DNA of 64,000 bases from an uncultured Gammaproteobacteria bacterium (GCA_964348825.1 CAYGDX010000004.1:517-64516), one strand, 5' to 3'. Shown: positions 15,965 to 64,000, numbered from the stretch's first letter. Numbers and translations: made by a program. The notes: generated by a model from the sequence alone, not told the origin.

Positions 15965-16354
15965 AATTAATCAATATAAAATCAGTGAGGCACTATCTTT
16001 AAGTGATATTATTATTTTACTAAAAAAACAGCACCTTTGCTAGGCGCTGTAATACGTTTTTAGTGACGAATTATTTTTTATTTGTAATTATTCTACAATG
16101 TCGGGCACGAATTCATGAAATTCGTAGGAGAGTATGATTGGATTTGTTGGTTTTAACCTTTTGCGTACCGTGTATAGATGCCATTCAGTTGGCTCCGGTA
16201 GTTTTTGTGCATTATTTTTTGTATCATTTGGTTTATTTTGCATATTTTTTCCATTATTTTTTGATTTTATAATTTTGGATTTATTTAGGATTTAGTGCTT
16301 TCGGTCTTCGTAGTCGTGACTACTACGACGAAGTAGACTCGGATTTCGGATTTT

Positions 16355-18247
16355 TTACTCCCACTCAATTGTACCAGGTGGTTTGTTGGTTAGGTCGTAA
16401 AAGATGTAGGAAATTTTAGGTAGGCGTTTAAGTTTATTAATTATTTTTTTAATTACTAATTCAGGTAGTAAAAAGGCCTGTCCAGTCATCGCTTCGCGGG
16501 AAACAATCGGGCGGATTACCAAACTATCTGGTTGTTTAGTTGTGCCAAACGGCAATAGTACTACCGGACATTGCCAAATTTTATAATAAAGGTTGGCTGA
16601 TTTTAATTCGTGAATAACAATTGCATCAGCTTGTTGCAGAGTTTTAAGTCGTACCGTGTTAATAAAAGTTTTTTGTAATTTACCTAAGTTTAAATTTGGC
16701 CCGCTTAATTTTAAAATTACTCGGTTGATGATTTTGTGTTGGTTGATGAGTGGTGTGGCGGCTTGGTGTAATACCCTAGCGGCGCGGTAGGGAGCACCAA
16801 TGGCCAAAGGATGAGCGTAACTTCGTTCGTCGCCTTGTACGCCCACACTTTTAATCGGCAGAATTCTAGTTTGGTAATTTTTGACTTTAATGTCTCCGGT
16901 TATGAGTTGCTTGTCCACCGTAGCTTGGCTACTCCGCCGAAGTGGATATGAAGGATGGATAGCGAAGGTGGAATGATTGGTATTTGCATCATTACATAAT
17001 ATTCTCACCCCAAGGCCGGGGCCGGGAAAAGGATGAGTCCATAACAATTCATGAGGCAAGCCCAATTCTTCACCAATGGCGCGTACTTCATCTTTATATA
17101 ATTCTTTAAGTGGTTCAACTAGTTTTCCTTGGCTCGATAGTTTAGCTAAAATATCAATTCTATTGTGGTGAGTTTTAATAATGTCAGAGTGTTTGGTGCC
17201 ACCTGATTCTATAGTATCAGGATAAATGGTGCCTTGACCAAGTAGCCAATCCTTGGTATTTAATTTCAATTTAGTTTGAGCTAAATTTTTTACATCTAAA
17301 AAAGTTTGCCCAATAATTTTACGCTTAGTTTCCGGATCACTAATATTTTTAAGTCGCTTTAGAAAAATTTTAGAATAATTAGCAATATGTAAATTTTTAA
17401 AACCAGCTTGAGCTAAAGCAGATTTTGCATTTTTGGATTCATTTAAGCGCATTAATCCAGTATCAATATGAAGACCATAAACTTGAGTGGTACCTAAAAT
17501 TTTATTAAGTAAGGCAAAGGCCACGGTAGAATCTACTCCACCCGAAACCAGTAAAAATACTTTTTTATTATCAACTTGTTTTTTAATTTGATTGGTAATG
17601 CGTGTGAGGACAGAGTTTTGTTTAGTTGATTCAAGATGGCAAATATTATAAATAAAATTCTTAAGTATTTGTTTACCGTATTCGGTGTGATCTACTTCCG
17701 GATGAAATTGCAAACCAAAAATCGGTTTGGTAGTATGCGCAATTGCGGCCTGAGTTAGTGTTTGGGTTGAAGTTAGGGTAATAAAATTTTTAGGTAGTTT
17801 AATTACACTGTCGCCATGACTCATCCAAACCGTGCTGGTTTTTGGTATGTCGGCAAGCAGTGGGTGATTATTTTTAATTTGTAGTTTAGCGTAACCATAT
17901 TCACGAATCTGACCGGCTTTAAGTTCACCTCCGAAATTGTGAGTTAAAAGTTGTAGGCCATAGCAAATTCCTAAAATAGGTATATTAATTTTAAGTAAGT
18001 TAGGATTAAACACTGCTGGATTTTTTAAAACACTCCTTGGGCCACCAGATAAAATAATACCAGCCGCTTTTTCAAATTTAGCGGTTGAAGCGGTGGGGGA
18101 AAGTAATTTAAAATCAACACCCAATTCTTTTAAATTGCGCGTGATTAAATGGGTATACTGCGAGCCAAAGTCGATTACGACGATGAATGGCTTGGATTGC
18201 TTCATGAGTTGATTATAGCTTAGGTGTTTGGTAGAATCAAAATACAA
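16355..18247 (-). CDS. guaA: GMP synthase (glutamine-hydrolysing), long form with insertions
   Basis: GATase-1 N-terminus (VIDFGSQYTHLI, GICYGLQ). PP-loop SGGVDSTV. C-terminal dimerisation domain. Confidence 0.85.
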   Translation of the reverse strand: MYFDSTKHLSYNQLMKQSKPFIVVIDFGSQYTHLITRNLKELGVDFKLLSPTASTAKFEKAAGIILSGGPRSVLKNPAVFNPNLLKINIPILGICYGLQLLTHNFGGELKAGQIREYGYAKLQIKNNHPLLADIPKTSTVWMSHGDSVIKLPKNFITLTSTQTLTQAAIAHTTKPIFGLQFHPEVDHTEYGKQILKNFIYNICHLESTKQNSVLTRITNQIKKQVDNKKVFLLVSGGVDSTVAFALLNKILGTTQVYGLHIDTGLMRLNESKNAKSALAQAGFKNLHIANYSKIFLKRLKNISDPETKRKIIGQTFLDVKNLAQTKLKLNTKDWLLGQGTIYPDTIESGGTKHSDIIKTHHNRIDILAKLSSQGKLVEPLKELYKDEVRAIGEELGLPHELLWTHPFPGPGLGVRILCNDANTNHSTFAIHPSYPLRRSSQATVDKQLITGDIKVKNYQTRILPIKSVGVQGDERSYAHPLAIGAPYRAARVLHQAATPLINQHKIINRVILKLSGPNLNLGKLQKTFINTVRLKTLQQADAIVIHELKSANLYYKIWQCPVVLLPFGTTKQPDSLVIRPIVSREAMTGQAFLLPELVIKKIINKLKRLPKISYIFYDLTNKPPGTIEWE

Positions 18248-18251
18248 ATTT

Positions 18252-18413
18252 GTTACTTTTTATAAAGTAACACAAAATCGCCGCCTCGGTCTCCGAGTTT
18301 GAACAGTGCTCGTCAGACGAACTGACTCGCCCTATGCAAAGCGACCACAAACACGGGCGAGTCGGACGTTCGTCTGACTTCCGCTCTGTACAAACCCTAC
18401 GACAGGGCGGCAA
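18252..18413 (+). repeat. GC-rich palindromic repeat element, copy 1 (small AT hairpin GTTACTTTTTATAAAGTAAC plus ~135-bp GC-rich imperfect hairpin)
   Basis: Shares termini CGCCGCCTCGGTC...CAGTGCTCGTC...GACTTCCGCTCTGTACAAA..CTACGACAGGGCGGCAA with copies at 53480-53638 (inverted) and 56486-56650. Confidence 0.8.
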
Positions 18414-18444
18414 TCACGGTTTATTAGTTAGATTTATAAACTTT

Positions 18445-19835: not shown

Positions 19836-19879
19836 TTGTCATTGCGAGTTTCAACAAAGTAATTTCTCACATTCATCAA

Positions 19880-27608: not shown

Positions 27609-27847
27609 CCCCTTTCTGTGTAAGAGATTAGTTCGCTTTTATTATAGCAGGGAAGGAATAGAAGGGGTAGAGGGGTGGATTAATTGTCATTGCGAGTATC
27701 CCGAGCCGAGTCGAGGGGGACGAAGCAATCTTTTAAAAATCCTAAATCATAATATCTAAATACTAAACAAATCCAAAATTCAAATTTTCAAAATAAAAAA
27801 TGGCTAACGTGTTTTTAGTTAGCCATTGTGATTGATGATTTTTTGAA

Positions 27848-32414: not shown

Positions 32415-32573
32415 TCGTTTTGGCAGGTGGCTCGTAGTATCATTTTATGTCTGGATTCCCTCCGCCGGCTGGCGGATCCGCGGGAATGACAGTTATTTAT
32501 TATATGCTATTAGCTATTTGCCACGTGCTATTTGCTAAATGCTCGCCTTGCCAGTGTAACTTTTTCATTGCGA

Positions 32574-33719
32574 TTATTCAAGAGGCAATTTAATCACCGA
32601 CTTTATATATTCAATCACTTTCTTCTCCGCTTCAATGATGCTAGTGTTTGGTAGTATTGCTTGGGCGCGGGCACGATCACCAGTAGCTTCAAATGGCTTA
32701 AGTAAATCAATGGCTCTTTCGCCCGCGCCGGCATGAGTAAATATTTTTATATTATTTGGCGTAGTTTCGCAAATCAAAACCACCGTACCTGCTTCAGGGG
32801 CGGAAGTTATAAGTTCGTCAATTACACCCGAGAGGGCATCTTCAGTGGCCCCAGCTTTAATAAAATCGTCAGCTGTTAAAATTGACCACACTAATTTTTT
32901 ACCTGAATCGCTTTTTAGTCGCGCGAGTACTCTACCCCACAGTTTTAAAGTGGAGAGTTGTTTGGTGCGATACAAATGCGCTACTACTTCGTCGCGCCGC
33001 GCACCAAGTTGCACCAGTTTGGAAGCGAGCTGCAAAGTAGTGGGGCTAACTTGATTGGTGGAAAAACTTTTAGTAGCTGAAGTAAGTGAAGTGAATAAGC
33101 AGGTAGCAATATCAGCGTCACATTTAGTCGGATCAATTTCTTTAAGCAGTGAATAAACAATTTCGGCGCTTCCCGCAGTATTAAAATCTACCAAATTAAT
33201 TTGACCGAAATGTTCGTTGCTTGAAGCATTATCAATATTGATAATAGTAGTATTGTAAAAAAATTCTGAGTTGTTGTGAAAAATATCACCCAAAGAATCT
33301 AAATCTGGTGCATCTAAAGTAATAATTAAATCATAAGCAAAATCAGAAGCGCGGGTAGTAATATCAGAGGCTGAAAGGGATCCAGTTTTAGGGGTAAGAA
33401 AAATATTTAATTTTTTATCTATCACTTCGTAACTTAAATCTTGCAAAGTAGTTTGTTCTAAATTAAGCGTAATAATGAATTTTCGAAGTGGTGGTAATTC
33501 AGCTTTAATATTTTGACTATGAGGCAGAAAACGAAGCACTCCAGGCAAGGTAAATCCTGAGGCTACGATTTCAACTTTTTTATCTAATTTTTGCAAAAAC
33601 AAAGCTGTAGCCAGAGCCGAACCCATGCAAGATAGGGCCTTATTGGCAGGAAAAGTAAGCAAAATCCGGCGACTTTCGCGGATTAAGTTAACAGCTTGTT
33701 GTTGAGGAGTGAACGCCAT
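32574..33719 (-). CDS. DHH-family-like protein with degenerate motifs (NrnA paralog-like)
   Basis: Overall NrnA-like length and layout, but DHH/GGGH positions are replaced (IDNAS, HAGAGER). A canonical NrnA lies at 36402-37370. Confidence 0.35.
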   Translation of the reverse strand: MAFTPQQQAVNLIRESRRILLTFPANKALSCMGSALATALFLQKLDKKVEIVASGFTLPGVLRFLPHSQNIKAELPPLRKFIITLNLEQTTLQDLSYEVIDKKLNIFLTPKTGSLSASDITTRASDFAYDLIITLDAPDLDSLGDIFHNNSEFFYNTTIINIDNASSNEHFGQINLVDFNTAGSAEIVYSLLKEIDPTKCDADIATCLFTSLTSATKSFSTNQVSPTTLQLASKLVQLGARRDEVVAHLYRTKQLSTLKLWGRVLARLKSDSGKKLVWSILTADDFIKAGATEDALSGVIDELITSAPEAGTVVLICETTPNNIKIFTHAGAGERAIDLLKPFEATGDRARAQAILPNTSIIEAEKKVIEYIKSVIKLPLE

Positions 33720-36296: not shown

Positions 36297-36401
36297 TAAT
36301 ATACTGGGCTACTTAGGTAGCCCTTTTAAAATCCGAATATCGAATATCGAAATCCGAAAATTTCGAATTTCGAATTTAGTGCTTCGGATTTAATTTAATT
36401 T

Positions 36402-37370
36402 ATGTTTTCTCCCGAACTATTCAACCAACTCACTAAAAAAGTTCTATCAGCCGATAGTATTCTACTGGTTAGTCATGCCAATTGTGGTGATGCAACTGGT
36501 TCGGTTACAGCAATTTATTTAGCACTCACTCGTTTGGGAAAAAAGGTCACAATTTTTTTACCAGCGCCAGTTGCTAAATCTTTACGGTTTTTACCTAAGA
36601 GTGAAATTGTTATAAGTGAGGCCGATAAAATTGATTGGCTTGATTACGATTTATTATTTTGTGTGGATTTGGGTGAGCCAAAATTAAGCGGCGTTTTGTT
36701 TGACAAATGGTTGAGCCGTCCCGCTACTTTATTTACAATAGATTTTGATCATCATTTTACTAATTCAGGTTTCGGCGATTTAAATATTTTAGATAAAACC
36801 GCTGCGGCCACATGTGTAATGATTTATCAGTGGTTTAAACAAGCTGAATTTTTAATCGACAAATCAATTGCCACTTGCTTGTTAACTGGAATTTTAACTG
36901 ACACCGATTCTTTTTCTAATGCCGCAACCAATGAAGTATCTCTTAAAATTGCAGCTGAACTACTACTCAAAGGCGCCGCTATTTCGCGTGCCACCCAAGA
37001 AATTAATCAAAATAAAAATATTAGCGAACTTAAATTGTGGGGCCGGGCTTTAGAAAGATTACAATCACACAATGATTTAGGATTAGTAACCACAGTTATT
37101 ACATTAAACGATTTAAAAGAGTTTGATGCTTCGGTGCAGGCGCTAGAAGGTGTGGCTAATTTTTTAAGTAATTTAGGAGAATATCGTGCAGTGCTAGTAC
37201 TACGGGAAAATGACGATGGCACAGTAAAAGGTAGTTTACGCACGACTCATGACGATGTTGATGTAGCAGCACTGGCTAAACTATTTGGCGGTGGCGGGCA
37301 TAAAAAAGCCGCTGGGTTTACGATAACAGGTAAATTAGTGGAAACAACTAGTGGTTGGAAAATTGAATAA
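36402..37370 (+). CDS. nrnA: NrnA-like DHH/DHHA1 bifunctional oligoribonuclease / pAp phosphatase
   Basis: DHH motif TIDFDHHFTN. DHHA1 GGGGHKKAAGF. Confidence 0.75.
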   Translation: MFSPELFNQLTKKVLSADSILLVSHANCGDATGSVTAIYLALTRLGKKVTIFLPAPVAKSLRFLPKSEIVISEADKIDWLDYDLLFCVDLGEPKLSGVLFDKWLSRPATLFTIDFDHHFTNSGFGDLNILDKTAAATCVMIYQWFKQAEFLIDKSIATCLLTGILTDTDSFSNAATNEVSLKIAAELLLKGAAISRATQEINQNKNISELKLWGRALERLQSHNDLGLVTTVITLNDLKEFDASVQALEGVANFLSNLGEYRAVLVLRENDDGTVKGSLRTTHDDVDVAALAKLFGGGGHKKAAGFTITGKLVETTSGWKIE

Positions 37371-44501: not shown

Positions 44502-44676
44502 TTGTCATTGCGAGGAGCGAGTGAGGCGAGCGACGTGGTAATCTCTTAAAAATCCCAAGATCCAAATCCCAATAAAATCCAAATTTCTAAAATCCAAAAT
44601 TATGAAACTCATTGGATTTTAATATTTGGATTTTTGTATATTTAGGTTGGAAATGTTTTAATGTTATAATGTTATT

Positions 44677-47649
44677 ATGAAAGAATTACCCAAGGCCTAT
44701 GAAGCCAAACAATACGAGAATTCAATTTACAAGATTTGGGAAGAATCCGGCTTTTTTAATCCTGACAATTTACCGGGAAATGGTGAGTCGTTTACTATTA
44801 GCATGCCACCCGCTAACGTGACTGGTGTCTTACACATAGGGCATGCCACTTTTGTTACTCTGCAAGATTTAATGGTTAGATTTGCTAGAATGCAGGGTAA
44901 AAAGGCGTTGTGGTTGCCTGGCACAGACCATGCCTCCATTGCTACTCAGAATATTGTGGAGAAAAAAATATGGGAGGAAGATAAAAAAACTCGTTTTGAT
45001 TTTAGTCGCGAAAAATTTATCGAAATTGTATCTAATTTCGCTGAAAAATCACAAGTCGTTATAAAAAGTCAAATACGGTCTTTAGGTGCTTCATGTGATT
45101 GGTCACGCGAGCGTTACACTTTGGATACTGGTTTGACCAAATCAGTGAATGAGGCCTTTATTAGGTTGTATAATAATGGTTTGATTTATCGTGGAAAGAG
45201 AATGGTAAATTGGTGCACGCGATGTGGTACTACTTTGGCAGATGATGAGGTTGAATACAAAGAATCAATTAATAAATTTTATTATTTAAAATACGGCCCG
45301 CTTATAATTGGTACGGCCCGTCCAGAAACTAAGGTGCTTGATAAAGTGGCAATTGTGCATCCAGATGATGAGCGTTATAAACAGTATGTCGGTCGTGAAT
45401 TTACGATTCCTTGGATTTTGGGTGACATAAAAATAAAGGTGGTGGCAGATAAGATGGCAGAAATAGAAACTGGCACAGGTGCAATGAGTATTACCCCAGC
45501 CCATAGTTTTGTGGATTTTGAATTGGCTCAAAAGTACGACTTTGAAATAGTAGATATTATTGGTCCAGATGGTAAGTTAACTGGTAATACTGGTAGATTT
45601 TCTGGGTTAAAAGCAAAAGAAGCACGGGTGGCAATTATAGAGGAGTTGCAAGCTAAGGGCTTAGTAGATCGTATTGATGAAAATTATAAGCACAATTTGT
45701 CAATTTGTTATCGTTGCGGTATGCCAATTGAGCCAATGCCACTAGAACAGTGGTTTGTGGCGGTAGATAAGCCTTTTAAAATGGGTTGGTTTAAAAAAAC
45801 CACATTAAAAAAGTTAGCACTTGAAGCTGTGCGCAGTGGGCAGATAAAAATTATTCCGGAAAAGTTTGAGAAAGTTTATTATAATTGGATGGAAAATTTG
45901 CATGATTGGTGTATTTCGCGCCAGATTTGGTTTGGACATAGAATTCCGGTGTGGTACCGAGAAAAAGTCAGGAAGTCAGGAAGTCAGGAAGTTAAAGATG
46001 ATTTAAATAATAAAGAAGTTTTTGTTGGCGCTGAAAAACCAGAGGAGAAAACGAACTTTGTTTTCTTGCATGGCTTTTACGCAACTTTAGAAGTGAAAGA
46101 TCCACTTAAATGGTTATACGAACAGTTACCAGGGGCAAATAATTTTTGGTCTTTGCTTCCCGGTTATGATAAATCTGGTTCGAAGGAGGTCCAAATAAAA
46201 TACGTGCTTGATCATGCCACAATAGATGAGAATACAGTAATTGTTACGCACTCACGTGGCGGTAAACTGGCTATGAAGCTTCTAGAAGAAACAGGTAGGC
46301 AGGTAAAGGGATTAGTTTTAATCGTAGCTGGTATTGGCGGTAGAAAAATAGAAGTTCCTGATTCTGGTGAATATGATAGCTTTGATTTTAAAAAAATAAA
46401 GTCATTAGTAAAAACACAGATAGTTTTATTTGAAGCCACTGAGGATCATGTGCGTGCACCCGAGGCATATCAAACTTTAGCGCGTGAGCTTAATGCAAAA
46501 CATATTAAAGCTGAGAAATCCGCCTCTCATTATAATCAAGCAGAAGCCTCAGAAGTATTAGAAGAATTAAAAAAATTTATTTGGGTTCAGGATCCAGATA
46601 CTTTAGATACTTGGTTTTCTTCTTCACTTTGGACATTTTCCACTCTAGGTTGGCCTGATCAAACTATTGATTTAAAAACTTTTCACCCCACGGAAGTTTT
46701 GGAAACTAGCTATGATATTTTGTTTTTTTGGGTGGCAAGAATGATATTAATGTCTAAATACTTATTGCGACAAGTTCCCTTTAAGACAGTTTATTTACAT
46801 GGTTTAGTGCGCGATAAGCAGGGGCGCAAGATGTCTAAATCGCTTGGCAATGGAATTGATCCTTTGTTGATGATTGGTAAATATGGAGCTGATGCAACTA
46901 GATTAGCTTTAATGATAGGAACCACACCGGGAAATGATGTTCGAATGTATGAAGAAAAAATTGCCGGTTATCGCAATTTTATAAATAAGCTTTGGAATAT
47001 CTCACGCTTTATTTTAATGAATGTAACCGAGGTAAAGCTTTCGGAGGTAGCACCTACACCAGTAACCACAGCTGATCGTTGGATTTTGTCACGCTTATCA
47101 AAAATTACAAAGGAGGTCACTGAGCATATTGAAAAATTTGAATTTTCTCCAGCAGGTGAAAAGCTCTATGATTTCACTTGGCACGAACTCGCGGATTGGT
47201 ATGTGGAAATTGCAAAAATTGAAGGCGGTAAAGACGCGATGCTTAGTTGGTGCTTACAAACGATACTTAAATTATGGCATCCTTTTACGCCATTTGTAAC
47301 CGAGGTATTGTGGGGTGAGATATTTAATACAGGAAAGATGTTAATGGTAGAATTTTGGCCAAAAATTGTTGGACAAATAGATGAAAAAGCGGAAGCGGAA
47401 ATAAAAATGGTTCAAGAAATTGTGACTGTGATTAGGAATTTTAGATCGGAGAATAAAGTTTTACCAGATAGTATACTCAACTGTACTGTATCCGTTAAAA
47501 ATAAGGACGGATTGTCAGATACGGAAATAATGTTGATTGAAGGTTTACGTACAAAAGTGAAGGTTTTACATAATATTACTGAATCAAGTATTGAAATTAA
47601 AGTAGGTGATTACATTATTAATTTTAGCGAGGCATTGACAGATTTATAG
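44677..47649 (+). CDS. valS: Valyl-tRNA synthetase carrying an in-frame ~210-aa inserted YdeN/RBBP9-type alpha/beta serine hydrolase domain (approx. nt 45958-46590)
   Basis: HIGH (LHIGHA), editing domain, KMSKS. Between GHRIPVWY and DPDTLDTWFSS lies FVFLHGFYATL...LKWLYEQL...VIVTHSRGGKLAMKLL...VKGLVLIVAG...IVLFEATEDHVRAPE...SASHYN, which matches the YdeN/RBBP9 hydrolase family. Confidence 0.85.
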   Translation: MKELPKAYEAKQYENSIYKIWEESGFFNPDNLPGNGESFTISMPPANVTGVLHIGHATFVTLQDLMVRFARMQGKKALWLPGTDHASIATQNIVEKKIWEEDKKTRFDFSREKFIEIVSNFAEKSQVVIKSQIRSLGASCDWSRERYTLDTGLTKSVNEAFIRLYNNGLIYRGKRMVNWCTRCGTTLADDEVEYKESINKFYYLKYGPLIIGTARPETKVLDKVAIVHPDDERYKQYVGREFTIPWILGDIKIKVVADKMAEIETGTGAMSITPAHSFVDFELAQKYDFEIVDIIGPDGKLTGNTGRFSGLKAKEARVAIIEELQAKGLVDRIDENYKHNLSICYRCGMPIEPMPLEQWFVAVDKPFKMGWFKKTTLKKLALEAVRSGQIKIIPEKFEKVYYNWMENLHDWCISRQIWFGHRIPVWYREKVRKSGSQEVKDDLNNKEVFVGAEKPEEKTNFVFLHGFYATLEVKDPLKWLYEQLPGANNFWSLLPGYDKSGSKEVQIKYVLDHATIDENTVIVTHSRGGKLAMKLLEETGRQVKGLVLIVAGIGGRKIEVPDSGEYDSFDFKKIKSLVKTQIVLFEATEDHVRAPEAYQTLARELNAKHIKAEKSASHYNQAEASEVLEELKKFIWVQDPDTLDTWFSSSLWTFSTLGWPDQTIDLKTFHPTEVLETSYDILFFWVARMILMSKYLLRQVPFKTVYLHGLVRDKQGRKMSKSLGNGIDPLLMIGKYGADATRLALMIGTTPGNDVRMYEEKIAGYRNFINKLWNISRFILMNVTEVKLSEVAPTPVTTADRWILSRLSKITKEVTEHIEKFEFSPAGEKLYDFTWHELADWYVEIAKIEGGKDAMLSWCLQTILKLWHPFTPFVTEVLWGEIFNTGKMLMVEFWPKIVGQIDEKAEAEIKMVQEIVTVIRNFRSENKVLPDSILNCTVSVKNKDGLSDTEIMLIEGLRTKVKVLHNITESSIEIKVGDYIINFSEALTDL

Positions 47650-48428: not shown

Positions 48429-50213
48429 TTATTCCGCTACGGTGAAAACTTCGGCAACTGAAGTTGTACCATCTAGAGCTTTAAGTAATCCATCTTGAAC
48501 CATTGTAATCATACCATCAGTTACGGCTACTTTTTCAATATCTATTTCATCGGCTGTGCCGGTTAAAATCATTTTTTCAATCTCCACCGTAACTTCCATT
48601 ATTTCATAAATGCCAATTCTACCTTTGTAACCTAAATTGTGGCAAGCAGCACAACCCGTACCTTGGTAGAATTTTAAATTGTTTAAATCAATTTTATTCT
48701 CCTTCGCCGAATCCTTAGTGTTTGACAATAGAGATGATGGCGAGGAGAACCCTGAGCGAACCGAGTGAGTCGAGGGGTTGGCTTCGGCAGAATTCCGTGA
48801 AACTCCATAACCACTATTTTTTGGTAAAGCTGATAAAATATTTTTTACGCGATTTAAAGTATCAATTTCTAATTTAATTTCGGCTTTGCAATTGGTGCAA
48901 ATTTTTCTAACCAAACGTTGCCCAATTACACAGTTAAGTGCCGGTGCAAGAAGGAACGGTTTAACCGCCATCGCTAAAAAGCGGGGAATGGCGCCGGCCG
49001 CGGAATTAGTATGGATAGTTGAAATTACTAAGTGACCAGTGAGTGCCGCATTTACCGCAATGTCGGCTGTTTCAATATCACGAATTTCGCCCACCATTAC
49101 AATATCTGGGTCTTGACGTAAAATAGCGCGGAGCCCTTTGGCAAAATCATAACCAGTGGAATGATCAATTTGACTTTGGTTAATACCTTGAAGTTTGTAT
49201 TCAACTGGATCTTCTAAAGTAATAATTTTTGTTTCTTCGTCGTTCAATTTATTTAAAACCGCGTAAAGGGTGGTAGTTTTACCTGAACCGGTTGGGCCTG
49301 TCGCAATAATCATACCGTGTGGGCGTTCGGTTTGTTTTTTTAATACTTCGTAAGCCTTACCCCGCAAGCCCAAATCTTCAAATTTTAGTCCAGCGGCCGA
49401 AGAGCGAAGTAAACGCATTACCACTGATTCACCCCAAGCGGTTGGAATGGTAGAAACACGCACATCAACTTTATCGTTTTCTAAATTAATGGTAAAACGT
49501 CCATCTTGTGGCTCAGAATTGATATTTAATTTTAAGCGGGCAATTAATTTTAAACGGGAAATTAACTGCTTCCAGTGTTCGGGTGCAATAGTTGAAACAT
49601 CATGTAGTACACCGTCTAGTCGATAGCGAATAATAATATTTTTTTCAGTGGCTTCCACATGAATATCGGAAGCAGAAAGCTCTAGTGCGCCAGCTATTAA
49701 GATATTTATAATATCGGTGAGGTTAGCAGTTTTTAAAACTTCGGCTAGTTTTTTAAAATCAGTGGCTACATTATCATAGTGAGCCAGTTCCTCATGGGTA
49801 ATATTTACACCAGTAGAAATTGGTTTTACTTTAGGTAGCCCAGCATAACCTTTTATTACGTGCTCAAAACTAGCCGAGGAAACAAGATAAAGTGATATTT
49901 TACACATTTTATCGGCCTTTAATTTATCTAGAAATTCATTTAGTCCAACTGCATCAGGATTAATTACGCCGATTTGTAAAATATTTTTGTCTAAAACAAT
50001 TGGTACAAGTTTAAGATTTTGAGCCGTATCTTCCGGAACCATTTGGAGTACTTCTTGGGCCACGTGAAATTTACGTAAATCTAGGTACGACAAATTAAGT
50101 GTAGAGGCCTGAGCCGCTACTTCTTTTTCCACGGCATCGCTAGCCAAGCCAGACATTTTGGCAGATAGTTTTTGAGCTACGTCGGGAGTGTTGATGGAAG
50201 GTTGAGAAGACAT
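48429..50213 (-). CDS. pilB: Type IV pilus / type II secretion assembly ATPase (GspE/PilB family) with an in-frame repeat-element insertion (approx. 48725-48800) within the tetracysteine region
   Basis: GSPII_E N-terminal domain. Walker A ATGPTGSGKTTT. CTNC...GCAACHNLGYKGRIGIYE Zn motif. Cys-pair spacing is ~80 aa rather than the usual ~35; the extra segment is encoded by a copy of the intergenic GC-rich repeat. Confidence 0.85.
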   Translation of the reverse strand: MSSQPSINTPDVAQKLSAKMSGLASDAVEKEVAAQASTLNLSYLDLRKFHVAQEVLQMVPEDTAQNLKLVPIVLDKNILQIGVINPDAVGLNEFLDKLKADKMCKISLYLVSSASFEHVIKGYAGLPKVKPISTGVNITHEELAHYDNVATDFKKLAEVLKTANLTDIINILIAGALELSASDIHVEATEKNIIIRYRLDGVLHDVSTIAPEHWKQLISRLKLIARLKLNINSEPQDGRFTINLENDKVDVRVSTIPTAWGESVVMRLLRSSAAGLKFEDLGLRGKAYEVLKKQTERPHGMIIATGPTGSGKTTTLYAVLNKLNDEETKIITLEDPVEYKLQGINQSQIDHSTGYDFAKGLRAILRQDPDIVMVGEIRDIETADIAVNAALTGHLVISTIHTNSAAGAIPRFLAMAVKPFLLAPALNCVIGQRLVRKICTNCKAEIKLEIDTLNRVKNILSALPKNSGYGVSRNSAEANPSTHSVRSGFSSPSSLLSNTKDSAKENKIDLNNLKFYQGTGCAACHNLGYKGRIGIYEIMEVTVEIEKMILTGTADEIDIEKVAVTDGMITMVQDGLLKALDGTTSVAEVFTVAE

Positions 50214-50337
50214 GATTGGTTTAAAAATTCGAAATTCGAGTCTACTTCGTCGTAGTAGTCACGACTACGAAGACCGAAAGCACTAAATTCGAAAATTTCG
50301 TATTTCGATATTCGGATTTCGAATTTAAATTAAATTA

Positions 50338-51360
50338 TTATTTTCCATTCCGCTTAGTTTTAGTAGGCGGTGTAGGTTTCCTTTTGCCAATCGATTGAAT
50401 ATATTCCGGAATCTCACTTGTTAATCGTACCAACTTTGGTACTACTGAACCAGTTTGTAGTTTCAAGAATAATAAAGTCCAAGCGGTATATGTAAAAACC
50501 GCTAACCAAATATTTACCGCTAACACTAACAATATTATTGGTAGCGAGGTTATTAGTGTTGATAAATTAAAATCAACTAGTAGTGAAACAATTCGTAGTT
50601 GAATGCCGCTTGGAATAAAAGCAAAGATTATATTTACTAAAATATTAATTCCAAATAAAATGCCAGCCATTTCCAAACTTACTAACCAGTTGCGACCAAA
50701 TAAATTTAGAGCGCGGATTAAAGATCTAAACCAATTTTCGCCGTAAATTACAATGTAACCGCTAGCGTATTTAGCCACAAAGGAAACAATAAAGCTAAGT
50801 GGTATAAAAATTAGGAAAGCCACAATTATTAAACCAGTTATACCAGTGGCGCCAAAAGGCGAGGTAAAAGTTACCAGTATAAAAGGCAAAATTGCCATCA
50901 TTAAAATAATCAAAACAGCAAAACGGGTAATTAAGCGCAAGGCAAAAAGCGGCCAAGCGTGAGTTGCCCCTTCAACTAACGCCGTCCATAAATTAATTGA
51001 TTTACCTTGATTAATTTTAGCTACCACGTGAATCAAAGCGGCTTGGCAAATTAAAATCAGCCAAACTATAAGTAGGGCTAAAATAATTATTAAAACTAAC
51101 CCCCAAATTATAGCAGCCGAATTTCCGGCCAAATTATTTTTTATAATTTGCCAAATGGCTAGAAAATCTTGTCCGCCTACTGTACCTAAGGTAGCATTCA
51201 AAAAACCATTTTGAGTGTCAATTTGATTAGCGGTTTTAAGTAGGGCATTGTATTCATTACCGTAACCCGTAAAAGCTAAAATAAGCCCGAGTGGCCAAAG
51301 CCAAACGTAGCGCCATAAAATGTGCCAAGCTTGTTTTAAAATATCACGATAAATACGCAT
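50338..51360 (-). CDS. Hypothetical polytopic membrane protein
   Basis: Multiple hydrophobic helices. Confidence 0.35.
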   Translation of the reverse strand: MRIYRDILKQAWHILWRYVWLWPLGLILAFTGYGNEYNALLKTANQIDTQNGFLNATLGTVGGQDFLAIWQIIKNNLAGNSAAIIWGLVLIIILALLIVWLILICQAALIHVVAKINQGKSINLWTALVEGATHAWPLFALRLITRFAVLIILMMAILPFILVTFTSPFGATGITGLIIVAFLIFIPLSFIVSFVAKYASGYIVIYGENWFRSLIRALNLFGRNWLVSLEMAGILFGINILVNIIFAFIPSGIQLRIVSLLVDFNLSTLITSLPIILLVLAVNIWLAVFTYTAWTLLFLKLQTGSVVPKLVRLTSEIPEYIQSIGKRKPTPPTKTKRNGK

Positions 51361-53336: not shown

Positions 53337-53479
53337 GGGATTTATTATAAAATATTAAAGTTTAACTGCTAGGATATTGTAGGGTAAAATGGGTTAGAAA
53401 TCAAGAGAGGATTATTTAAATCCTAAATTCGAATATCGAAATCCGAAATAATTACCAAATCCCAATTCTCAACAGTTTT

Positions 53480-53638
53480 GCCGCCCTGTCGTAGGGTTTG
53501 TACAGAGCGGAAGTCAAACGAGCGTCCGGTTCGGGCGTGCTGTGGTAGTTGTGCATAGCCCGAACCAGCTCGTTTGACGAGCACTGCTCAAACCCAGAGA
53601 CCGAGGCGGCGATTTTGTGTTACTTTATAAAAAGTAAC
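53480..53638 (-). repeat. GC-rich palindromic repeat element, copy 2 (inverted orientation)
   Basis: Reverse complement aligns end-to-end with copy 1 (18252-18413), including the flanking GTTACTTTATAAAAAGTAAC hairpin. Confidence 0.8.
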
Positions 53639-53714
53639 AAAACAAAATAACAAGTTGATTATGTTAAATAAAACTTAAACACCGCTTTTTATGCGGTGTT
53701 TAAGTTTAAGTAAT

Positions 53715-56485: not shown

Positions 56486-56650
56486 ACCACTTCTCTAGAG
56501 AAGTGGTGCAAGAGTCGCCGCCTCGGTCTTCGTATTTGAACAGTGCTCGTCGGACTCGTTGGCTCGGGCTATGCACAGCGGCCACAAACACGCCCTCGCC
56601 GGACACTCGTCCGACTTCCGCTCTGTACAAATACTACGACAGGGCGGCAA
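56486..56650 (+). repeat. GC-rich palindromic repeat element, copy 3 (small hairpin CCACTTCTCTAGAGAAGTGG plus GC-rich hairpin)
   Basis: Termini AGTCGCCGCCTCGGTC...CAGTGCTCGTC...GACTTCCGCTCTGTACAAA.ACTACGACAGGGCGGCAA are shared with copies 1 and 2. Confidence 0.8.
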
Positions 56651-56664
56651 TAAATAAATTGCTT

Positions 56665-61300: not shown

Positions 61301-61354
61301 AATTTAAAATTCGAATATCGAAATTCGAATATCGAAATTTTCGGATTTTTCATT

Positions 61355-63919
61355 ATGTATCTACAAAAGTTGGAGATCCAAGGTTTTAAATCATTTGCCC
61401 AAAAAACTGTTTTGGAATTTAATCGTGAGTTAACAGCGGTCGTGGGGCCGAATGGTTCAGGTAAATCAAATATCGCTGATGCAATTCGCTGGGTACTCGG
61501 CGAGCAATCAGTCAAACTTTTGCGTGGGAAACGGGCCGAAGATGTAATTTTTGCGGGTAGCACCACAAAAAGTCGTTTGGGTATGGCAGAAGTGTCACTT
61601 CATTTAAATAATAATGATGGTGGGTCACTGGCTGATTATTCAGAAATAATAGTTACCCGTCGCGTGTATCGCGATGGGCAAAGTGAATATTTATTAAATG
61701 GCGAATCAGTTCGTTTGCAAGATATTTTAATACTTTTAGCCCGCGCTAATTTTGGACAAAAAACTTACAGCGTTATTGGCCAAGGTATGGTGGATTCTAT
61801 ACTCCTCGCCACACCAACTGAGCGCAAAGAATTTTTTGAAGAAGCGACTGGTGTAAAGCAATATCAATTAAAGCGTGAGCAAGCGGTACAAAAATTATTA
61901 ACGACTTATACAAATTTAGAACAAGGTCAAGCGTTGCTCACCGAACTCGAGCCAAATTTACGTACTCTTACACGTCAGGTGAAGCGTTTAGAACAAAGGC
62001 AGGAGTTAGAGCAGGAATTAAGCGGCAAACAAAAATTATATTACCGCTTCCGTTTTCATACTTTGGAAAATGAACGGCAAGTAGTTGTTAAACAAAATGG
62101 AGATATTACTTCTAAATTACAAAGCGCGCGCGAATTATCAGCTGATTTACAAGAACGGCTTAAAATTTTAAGCCAAACAGCACTGACCCAAGGTATTTTT
62201 GATTCACAAAAAAAGATCGATAATTTACGAAGTGATTTGAATCAGGCCTTACGTGAACAAGCGCATCTTCAAGCTGAAGCCAAAATTAAATTAATTGAAC
62301 GAGGTGAAGGCGAAGTAGCTTGGCTTAAAGAAAGAGAAGTTGAGCTTAGTCAAAAAGTAAAAGAATTAAAGCAAGCCGGTGAAAATTTACAGGTTGAAAA
62401 AACAAATACTGAAAAATTACTAGCCGAAGCCATCGCTCGAGAGAGTAGTTTGGTTTTGCCCGAAGAATTAAGTAGTGGCAATGATTGGTTGGTACGGGCT
62501 TTGCAGAAAATAGTTAATGATTATGGAGTAGTACGTAATAATTTAATTAAAGCTCAAAATTTAAATGATATAAAAATTTTAACCAATAGCTTGAATGATT
62601 TAGAATCAGATCTTAAAACTATTTTACGTAAACTTTCAACTAGTAGTGAGCTTAGTGCGGAGGTCGTGGCTAATTTTCAAAAACAGCGAGAAGAAATTTT
62701 ACAACAAATTGGACGCCACGAGGGTGGACTTAAATTTATTAATCAACAAATTGAAGATAATAGTCGTGAACAAAAAATTATTGTTGAATCGCATGATAAT
62801 ATTAAAAGAACTTTATCAACCAGCAAAAGTGCGGATGATTTTGAAACCAATGACAAATTAACAGCCAAGTTAGCTACTAAAATTGGTGAGTTAGAAAATA
62901 ATTTACATACTGCCGAAGTTGAACTTAAAAAAGTCCAAAGCGCTTTGGGTGCGCGGCAAACTGAATTAGTTAATTTACAACAAGAGTCCACTCAGGCTTT
63001 GGCAAAAATTTCTGCGCTTTCCGAGTCGAGCCGTGAGGCTGAAATGGTTTTGGTTCGTTTGGAAACCAAACTTGAAGATTTAGAGCGAGAAATGGCTGAG
63101 GATTTATCGCCGGAATTTTGTCGGGAAATAAAGTTAGTTGGGGTGGTTGCAGAAATTGACGAAGGCCGAGTAGCACTAGAATTACAAAAATTAAAAGCTC
63201 AACTTGAACTTACTGGTGGCATTGAGCCCGAGGTAGCGCAAGAATTTCAACAAGTAAAAACTCGGCATGATTTTTTAACCAAACAAATTGCCGATTTAAC
63301 TTTAGCCGCCGCTTCACTTGAATCAGTAATTCGCGATTTAGATACTACCATCCATAAACAATTTATGGTTAATTTTAACGCCATTAATGATAAATTTGCT
63401 AAATATTTTAAGGTAGTTTTTGGCGGAGGCAAGGCCCAACTGGTTTTACAAGAGGTTGGAAGCGAAAAAGAAGTAGTAGCAAATGAATCAGATGGTGGCG
63501 AAGAAAGAGCACCAACTTTAAGTGAAAAGTTTTTAGCCCAAGAAAAAAAGCGATCACAAATTTTTGCTGGTGTAGAAATTACCGCTACGCCACCCAGTAA
63601 AAGATTATCGGCCATTGCCGCACTTTCGGGTGGCGAAAAAGCCCTTACCGCCATCGCTTTGCTGTGCGCGATTATTTCTAATCACCCTTCACCTTTTGTA
63701 GTGCTCGATGAAGTGGATGCCGCACTCGACGAAGCTAATTCCGAAAGATACGCCGCGATTTTGGAATCACTAATGTCGGATACACAATTTATTACTATTA
63801 CTCACAACCGCGCCACTATGCGCCGCGCCTCAATTCTTTATGGCGTAACAATGGGGGAAGATGGGGTGTCTAAGTTATTGTCTGTTAAATTAGATCAAGC
63901 AGATGAGATGGTTAAATAA
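61355..63919 (+). CDS. smc: SMC-family chromosome segregation ATPase (short, 854 aa)
   Basis: N-terminal Walker A VVGPNGSGKSN. Long coiled coils. C-terminal LSGGEKALTAIALL signature and Walker B VVLDEVDAALD. Confidence 0.8.
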   Translation: MYLQKLEIQGFKSFAQKTVLEFNRELTAVVGPNGSGKSNIADAIRWVLGEQSVKLLRGKRAEDVIFAGSTTKSRLGMAEVSLHLNNNDGGSLADYSEIIVTRRVYRDGQSEYLLNGESVRLQDILILLARANFGQKTYSVIGQGMVDSILLATPTERKEFFEEATGVKQYQLKREQAVQKLLTTYTNLEQGQALLTELEPNLRTLTRQVKRLEQRQELEQELSGKQKLYYRFRFHTLENERQVVVKQNGDITSKLQSARELSADLQERLKILSQTALTQGIFDSQKKIDNLRSDLNQALREQAHLQAEAKIKLIERGEGEVAWLKEREVELSQKVKELKQAGENLQVEKTNTEKLLAEAIARESSLVLPEELSSGNDWLVRALQKIVNDYGVVRNNLIKAQNLNDIKILTNSLNDLESDLKTILRKLSTSSELSAEVVANFQKQREEILQQIGRHEGGLKFINQQIEDNSREQKIIVESHDNIKRTLSTSKSADDFETNDKLTAKLATKIGELENNLHTAEVELKKVQSALGARQTELVNLQQESTQALAKISALSESSREAEMVLVRLETKLEDLEREMAEDLSPEFCREIKLVGVVAEIDEGRVALELQKLKAQLELTGGIEPEVAQEFQQVKTRHDFLTKQIADLTLAAASLESVIRDLDTTIHKQFMVNFNAINDKFAKYFKVVFGGGKAQLVLQEVGSEKEVVANESDGGEERAPTLSEKFLAQEKKRSQIFAGVEITATPPSKRLSAIAALSGGEKALTAIALLCAIISNHPSPFVVLDEVDAALDEANSERYAAILESLMSDTQFITITHNRATMRRASILYGVTMGEDGVSKLLSVKLDQADEMVK

Positions 63920-64000
63920 AAATTCGAAATTCGAATATCGAAATCCGAAAAAATCCCCAAGGCCCAAATCCTAAGCCCCAAGATTGAATTTTAAATTTAT

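Follow-up and report, generated by a model that had tools for sequence, protein, structure and literature searches.

In this study we analysed a stretch of 64,000 nucleotides (nt) of DNA from an uncultured Gammaproteobacteria bacterium (GCA_964348825.1 CAYGDX010000004.1:517-64516), in the following called the window, with a focus on its pilB gene, a pilB/gspE-type ATPase gene on the minus strand at 48429-50213. Between the codons for the two cysteine pairs of the zinc-binding motif of PilB we found a GC-rich, in-frame insertion of 111 nt (48696-48806) that is absent from the homologues of the protein. The insertion lies in a permissive loop of the gene product. We see about an even chance that it is derived from a hairpin repeat of the same genome, either as a fragment or as an old copy, which by now would form a disordered loop of the protein.

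The pilB gene comprises 594 codons plus the stop codon. Its product matches the Pfam family T2SSE (PF00437, E=8.7e-122) over residues 162-590, and sequence matches to the PilB and GspE structures in the PDB reach E-values of about 1e-102. A structural model of the protein (see below) was compared with known structures using Foldseek and gave template modelling (TM) scores of 0.79-0.80 to Geobacter PilB, Thermus PilB and Vibrio GspE (5TSH, 5IT5, 1P9W). The Walker A sequence GPTGSGKT is readable in the translation, the tetracysteine zinc motif CxxC...CxxC is complete, and the GYxGR motif downstream of it reads GYKGR. In the homologue alignment every invariant column of the ATPase family is retained. 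The open reading frame (ORF) thus encodes a type II/IV secretion ATPase (T2SSE, PilB/GspE). Of the two cysteine pairs in this motif, CTNC (residues 439-442) comes first and is encoded at 48888-48899, and CAAC (residues 521-524) comes second and is encoded at 48642-48653, both on the minus strand, with C442, C521 and C524 being invariant columns of the alignment. The nearest database proteins carry Patescibacteria annotation (Uhrbacteria, Magasanikbacteria, Buchananbacteria), and the GC content of the window is 37%. The best full-length database matches are proteins of approximately 1000 residues (P0002-P0120), among them P0002 with two tandem T2SSE ATPase domains. Outside the gene, directly upstream of the start codon at 50213, lies the second copy (50223-50294, plus strand) of a 72-nt repeat, the other copy of which is found at 16284-16355 on the minus strand and is 94% identical.

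The original prediction had pointed to an unusually long spacer between the cysteine pairs of PilB. This was borne out: the spacer measures 78 residues, compared to 37-45 residues in 311 other instances of the motif from 239 homologues, such that the protein studied here is the sole outlier. A long loop of ancestral origin was rejected, since no other instance falls outside this range. The boundaries of the additional segment were obtained from an alignment of 69 homologues that are 62-72% identical over the shared columns. Against all 69 sequences, 35 alignment columns (residues 470-504) are occupied by the query only, and inspection of the individual rows revealed a clean gap at residues 470-506 between the conserved flanks ...LPxNSGY and KIDxxNLKFY.... 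From the alignment gap and the spacer length we delimit an insert of 37 codons, GVSRNSAEANPSTHSVRSGFSSPSSLLSNTKDSAKEN, which covers 48696-48806 on the minus strand and is free of stop codons. The sequence comparison indicates that the additional loop is not ancestral but goes back to an in-frame insertion specific to this lineage. When residues 467-507 were used as query, no match was found among 1.84 billion representative proteins.

The insert also differs in composition from the gene that harbours it. A scan for GC islands delimits a GC-rich core at 48736-48791 (plus strand, GC >= 0.62), the composition profile peaks at 0.60, and the ends of the insert are AT-richer than this core. For codons 470-505 the GC content at third codon positions (GC3) is 0.556 compared to 0.281 in the rest of pilB, and at second positions it is 0.61 compared to 0.35. 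The insert is therefore compositionally foreign. The interval 48725-48800 that was originally proposed for it covers the GC-rich core but misses the remainder of the insert.

Contigs from a second sample carry the same PilB protein, and 4701 nt there are identical to the window. An assembly artefact was rejected as source of the insert on this basis. A polymorphic empty site was not found, the contig from the other sample being 100% identical. An intein or intron was likewise rejected, as the insert is too short, lacks an Rfam match and is in frame. Rfam searches returned no match over the window at gathering thresholds and nothing meaningful for 48600-48900 at permissive thresholds. These data also bear on the idea that the segment is missing from the mature protein, either as an artefact of assembly, as an RNA intervening sequence or as a translational bypass element. 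GC-rich mobile clusters are indeed bypassed or tolerated in AT-rich organelle genomes. For the pilB insert, however, the identity with the second-sample contig, a length that is a multiple of three, 37 codons without a stop, and the lack of an Rfam match and of a stable structure make such an explanation very improbable.

To see where the insert resides in the protein we modelled residues 280-594 with AlphaFold2 using a 70-sequence alignment. The mean predicted local distance difference test (pLDDT) score of the model was 91, with values above 90 for the domain outside the insert. Over model residues 191-230 (protein residues 470-509) the means of ten-residue blocks dropped to 67, 50, 39 and 69, and the chain adopts a coil. 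This coil is flanked by two short strands (protein residues 469-472 and 506-509). A low-confidence coil between confident strands suggests that the insert protrudes from the tip of the loop joining the cysteine pairs and leaves the remaining domain unaffected. According to the model the insert thus sits in a predicted disordered surface loop that is tolerated by the PilB fold. The segment would now be translated as a Ser/Pro/Asn-rich disordered loop of 37 residues, which may be neutral.

The proposed source of the insert is a family of short hairpin repeats that begin with the 13-mer TTGTCATTGCGAG and end with GCAATC. The 13-mer occurs exactly three times in the window. In two of these cases, the elements E1 (27684-27731) and E2 (44502-44544), a GC-rich core and then (G/T)(C/T)AATC come after it. 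Both elements are intergenic, lie on the plus strand and are intact members, and E2 begins right where the stop codon of an HU-like gene ends. The covariance model built for the family (see below) assigns 41.3 bits (E=1.3e-10) to E1 and 37.7 bits (E=1.8e-9) to E2. The third exact 13-mer belongs to a remnant at 19836-19865 (plus strand, 11.9 bits), which has lost the upper stem. Another remnant, TTTTCATTGCGA...GAGGCAATTT, is located at 32562-32591 (plus strand, 12.8 bits), and one further degenerate copy was seen in a flanking contig (L128:3232-3264). All five copies or remnants seen in the source genome, four in the window and one in the contig, are intergenic. At 19836 and 44502 the sequence TTGTCATTGCGAG starts on the base after a TAG stop codon, which terminates a 79-residue ORF and the HU-like gene, respectively. 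At 27684 it comes after a TAA, but no ORF of at least 40 residues ends there.

To characterize the family we scanned IMG/VR for TTGTCATTGCGAG followed by 10-40 nt and GCAATC, which provided at least 146 elements at no fewer than 120 loci (L004-L123). The covariance model was built from 98 distinct aligned copies of this set. Their ends are invariant, the lower stem is ATTGC/GCAAT, the internal loop is GA / G-W-R, and the upper stem comprises 6-7 bp. The upper stem is free in sequence and covaries strongly: 185 cells were changed on both sides compared to 65 in shuffles, and 90% of its cells were paired compared to 27-56% when the partners were slid. A typical member has close matches on plasmids of Halomonas, Methylosinus and Methylocystis, and the family is also present in metagenome contigs (L133, L148, L155, L161). 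The TTGTCATTGCGAG...GCAATC hairpin family is thus very widespread and structurally constrained. No corresponding family exists in Rfam, and a literature search by the hairpin sequence returned unrelated PCR primers only. To our knowledge, no name has been published for it. In L153, near oriented position 1528, we observed a related hairpin, GTCATTCCGAGCGAGTCGAGGAATC, that has the same apex but differs in its lower stem.

The original prediction held that the insert DNA matches the cores of E1 and E2, and the sequences it quoted are all present at the places it gave. Within the insert, CCGAG-TGAGTCGAGGGG matches E1 at 27701-27718 and CGAGTGAGtCGAG matches E2 at 44518-44530. In local alignments CCGAGTGAGTCGAGGGG agrees with E1 in 17 of 18 positions and CGAGTGAGTCGAG with E2 in 12 of 13, both at the homologous apex. 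By pattern match the motif common to the apex of E1 and E2, CGAGTGAGTCGAG, is located at 48762-48774 on the plus strand. Local alignment revealed a second stretch, ATGGCGAGGAG at 48737-48747 (plus strand), that agrees in 10 of 11 positions with the left stem and internal loop of E2 (ATTGCGAGGAG); the p-value of this flank is about 0.01-0.03 and applies to E2 only. The left internal-loop sequence GCGAGGAG is common to the insert and the two hairpin elements E1 and E2. Shuffles that preserve the dinucleotide composition yielded p-values of 0.0015 for E1, 0.016 for E2 and 0.001 for the sum of both. The matches to the cores are thus real but short: the similarity is carried by a 13-nt motif, outside of which the flanks taken together are not significant (see below).

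We furthermore scored every 114-nt segment of the stretch on both strands against the two element cores. The insert was the top non-self locus for both, with a score of 45 compared to 38 for the next locus, a mean of 22 and a standard deviation of 3.9. When gaps were made cheaper, it still ranked first among the loci without the family 13-mer, and the alignment to E2 then consisted of ATgGCGAGGAG, 14 nt and CGAGTGAGtCGAG. The pattern CGAG-N(1-2)-GAG-N-CGAG has three matches in the window, at 27702, 44518 and 48762, i.e. in E1, E2 and the insert. All three are on the plus strand, and 0.01 matches are expected. The version found in the insert, CGAG-Y-GAG-K-CGAG (13 nt), is the apex motif of a low-GC subfamily. 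Canonical hairpins of low-GC metagenome contigs bear the same apex, with L148 being nearly identical to E1, and L133, L147 and L174 being E2-like. The apex motif is therefore not peculiar to the source genome.

These observations are consistent with the following scenario. A GC-rich segment of 111 nt would have entered the pilB gene of an AT-rich, Patescibacteria-like organism and come to lie between the ...NSGY and KID... codons, where the loop joining the cysteine pairs of the zinc-binding subdomain has its tip. A segment divisible by three, free of stop codons and placed in a peripheral loop would have left the ATPase intact. The donor would most likely have been one of the TTGTCATTGCGAG...GCAATC hairpin repeats of the genome or a fragment thereof. 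Two features of the local subfamily, the apex motif (CGAGTGAGtCGAG) and the left internal loop (ATgGCGAGGAG), would have been kept by the insert; the hairpin as well as the 3' half would have been lost or would never have been present. Where the intact family end would be TCG CAA TGA, the insert reads TCG CCA TCA. The intact end contains a stop codon in the frame of the insert, such that erosion of this end may have been required for survival of the gene.

A number of findings weigh against descent from the hairpin family. The covariance model returned -0.9 bits for the insert, far below the scores of E1 and E2, and did not match it at E<=10 when run over the whole window. The conserved 5' end TTGTCATTGCGAG has no match at the insert within 2 mismatches, where ATgGCGAGGAG alone matches. 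The GCAATC terminus (CG-W-R-GCAATC) and the ATTGC/GCAAT lower stem are absent, with the alignment of the right flank giving GCA only. Whether folded as RNA or as DNA, the insert does no better than shuffled sequences for either of the strands tested (z-scores of -1.5, -1.2 and +0.2). By eye, AACCC and GGGTT in the insert could pair around a loop of approximately 22 nt, with z-scores of the predicted folds of -1.2 and +0.2 with respect to shuffles. No target-site duplication was found at the insert junctions, and the sole inverted repeat is 9 nt long, matches in 8 of 9 positions and lies within the insert. A full-length alignment of the insert to a typical family member scored 16, the window mean being 10.5. 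By the defining features of the family, the pilB insert is thus not an intact copy.

The similarity itself also has to be read with care. The low complexity of the shared sequence, which consists of (N)GAG units, makes chance resemblance more likely, and the CGAG-N(1-2)-GAG-N-CGAG pattern was defined after the match had been seen. If the top rank of the insert is treated as the outcome of a search over all windows, and not as the test of a single locus fixed beforehand, it lacks significance on its own, with a rough extreme-value estimate of about 0.2-0.3. Beyond the 13-nt motif, similarity of the flanks does not reach significance (p of 0.1-0.2 for the sum), the exception being the left flank of E2 with the p-value given above. 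A second copy of the insert beyond chance was not found by BLAST in the 64-kb window and 18.6 kb of flanking contig (83 kb), and a 25-mer from the insert core had no match in JGI metagenomes. A GTDB scan for the canonical left end joined to the insert core (CATTGCGAG N0-30 GAGTGAGTCGAGG) yielded one match, in a Gemmatimonadaceae sequence, which we attribute to chance because this sequence is unrelated, GC-rich and without the family 3' end. In IMG/VR no canonical element carried the apex motif. With a less strict hairpin pattern, CCCTGAGCGAASCGAR...GGGGTT, a terminator-like hairpin in two related contigs was retrieved and nothing else.

The main alternative is a genuine insertion that has no relation to the hairpin repeats. 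It could have arisen when (N)GAG / CTC(R) units were multiplied by replication slippage or by duplication at the site, or from a stray GC-rich fragment captured in break repair, with the likeness to E1 and E2 being a chance similarity among GC-rich sequences of low complexity. Rejection by the covariance model, flanks unlike those of the elements, and the lack of a hairpin, of convincing inverted ends and of a target duplication all agree with such an origin. Short GAG-containing units make up the core of the insert, which is bracketed by the imperfect direct repeat GGAATTCTGCCGAA / GGATTCGGCGAA (peptides RNSAE / KDSAK). Moreover, GC-rich DNA often contains the motif: of 46 metagenome matches about 35 are non-canonical, nearly all of them located in GC-rich contigs. 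Within the window, however, a motif expected 0.01 times is found exactly in E1, E2 and the insert in the same orientation, and shuffles that retain the dinucleotide composition of the insert give a p-value of about 0.001. The additional 10/11 match to the left flank of E2 is on the expected side and in the expected order. Furthermore, slippage of the native AT-rich pilB sequence would not yield a GC3 of 0.56. Overall we consider an unrelated origin a serious possibility, though one that falls short of an even chance.

The original prediction had compared the insert with Rickettsia palindromic elements (RPEs). RPEs are short, non-autonomous elements that are found in frame in unrelated housekeeping genes and are translated together with the host protein (PMC10969869). 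The analogy holds in that the insert is in frame in a housekeeping gene, missing from the orthologues and placed at a site tolerated by the fold. It fails in other respects: RPEs are about 150 bp long, palindromic and multi-copy, and form defined families with a conserved peptide, whereas the insert comprises 111 nt, is not palindromic beyond chance, occurs as a single copy in 83 kb and encodes a peptide that matches nothing. In addition, the host is a Patescibacteria-like bacterium and not Rickettsia. These differences argue against the insert being an intact, currently mobile, multi-copy RPE-like palindromic element with many in-frame copies in the genome. Its stop-free reading frame, its absence from homologues and its location in a surface loop would suit such an element, as would the in-frame residence of the related hairpin family in genes elsewhere (see below). 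Neither BLAST nor motif searches, however, found another copy in the window or the extra contig, the insert fails the covariance model of the hairpin family, and the hairpin copies and remnants of this genome are all intergenic, such that we regard an intact mobile element as unlikely.

Other small GC-rich repeats of bacteria, namely MITEs (transposable elements of the miniature inverted-repeat type) and elements of the repetitive extragenic palindromic (REP) type (ERIC, Correia, BOX, REP/BIME), can also make in-frame fusions when landing in genes (PMC10969869). MITEs have terminal inverted repeats and target-site duplications, neither of which was seen at the insert. REPs are extragenic, whereas the insert lies within pilB. 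With the hairpin family the insert shares the CGAG-Y-GAG-K-CGAG apex, the left internal loop GCGAGGAG and the GC-rich composition in an AT-rich genome, but it is without the invariant ends and the lower stem that the family possesses. In its behaviour the insert resembles an RPE or a MITE inserted in frame, but it is a member of neither family. A comparable contrast is known from the mobile GC clusters of yeast mitochondria, which are short, GC-rich, palindromic and multi-copy, reside in a very AT-rich genome and are in some cases tolerated in frame within a coding gene. They resemble the insert in the contrast between GC-rich element and AT-rich host, but belong to another domain of life and have other sequences.

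In the case of the hairpin family, in-frame residence within coding sequence was found outside the source genome. Among the IMG/VR matches listed, 35% of the elements are spanned by an open frame of at least 200 codons, compared to 72% of random positions, so that elements are depleted from such frames. Among the same matches, a sizeable minority of the elements nevertheless lies in frame within real genes. In a terminase large subunit identified by Pfam (contig L016) an element occupies ORF residues 339-353 between the N- and C-terminal domains. In portal-MuF proteins (Pfam) it is found in the linker, at ORF residues 542-556 in L016 and residues 507-525 in L068, and in a Mu-type transposase (Pfam, L093) at residues 75-88 near the N-terminus. 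The in-frame elements in phage genes yield peptides such as EIAS...LAMTK and RLPRR...PRNDN. Since these phage genes are confirmed by Pfam, in-frame residence in coding sequence is a real habit of the hairpin family. The original claim that the repeat family resides within coding sequences while preserving the frame is thus supported by the terminase, portal-MuF and Mu transposase genes, but not by the pilB insert, which is rejected by the covariance model and lacks the family ends. In the ORFs of L016 other small repeats are apparently translated too, with the peptide PPMNTDEHR occurring three times.

One may go further and view the TTGTCATTGCGAG...GCAATC hairpin as an unnamed mobile element that crosses phyla, being present in a Patescibacteria-like genome, proteobacterial megaplasmids and many phage contigs, and that colonises coding sequence while keeping the frame, in the manner of RPEs in Rickettsia. 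In this view the pilB insert would be an aged and eroded copy, the ends of which were removed by selection and AT-biased mutation. We put this forward tentatively and rather doubt that it holds in full.

The window contains further repeats. A GC-rich element of 137 nt is present in three copies (18278-18414, plus strand; 53478-53641, minus strand; 56515-56651, plus strand). It forms one long hairpin with 44 predicted pairs, 10 of which show compensatory changes among the copies. Each copy lies upstream of the next gene in the same orientation, these genes being guaB, ftsH and a 71-residue ORF before gyrA. The listed start of the long guaB ORF, 18334, falls within the 18278-18414 copy, which means that this ORF begins by translating the 137-nt element. 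The extensions of guaB and of the ORF at 56503, originally described as translated repeats as well, belong to this separate hairpin repeat. In a BLAST search against the window the insert matched neither the 137-nt nor the 72-nt repeats. Many intergenic regions contain AT-rich periodic repeats, AAATTCGAAAT / TCGAATATCGAAATCCGAAA, in both orientations (36325-36408, 50285-50343, 53414-53468, 61301-61348 and 63912-63970). The valyl-tRNA synthetase at 44677-47649 (plus strand, 990 residues) carries an extra segment at residues of about 450-640 that splits the catalytic domain. Residues 514-629 of this segment show weak similarity to a serine hydrolase (PF06821, E=5.7e-4, below the cut-off).

If the pilB insert does descend from a hairpin repeat, the remodelling of proteins by small repeats in the style of RPEs would extend to candidate-phyla bacteria, and in this case would have affected a type IV pilus motor within its zinc-binding loop. 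For annotation the case serves as a caution that unusual GC-rich loops encoded by AT-rich genomes may be leftovers of repeats and not functional domains. Of broader reach and greater use is the hairpin family, which is abundant, covarying and unnamed, and which resides in frame in terminase and portal genes of phages. Surveying this family systematically could reveal how such elements spread and how they are absorbed by proteins.

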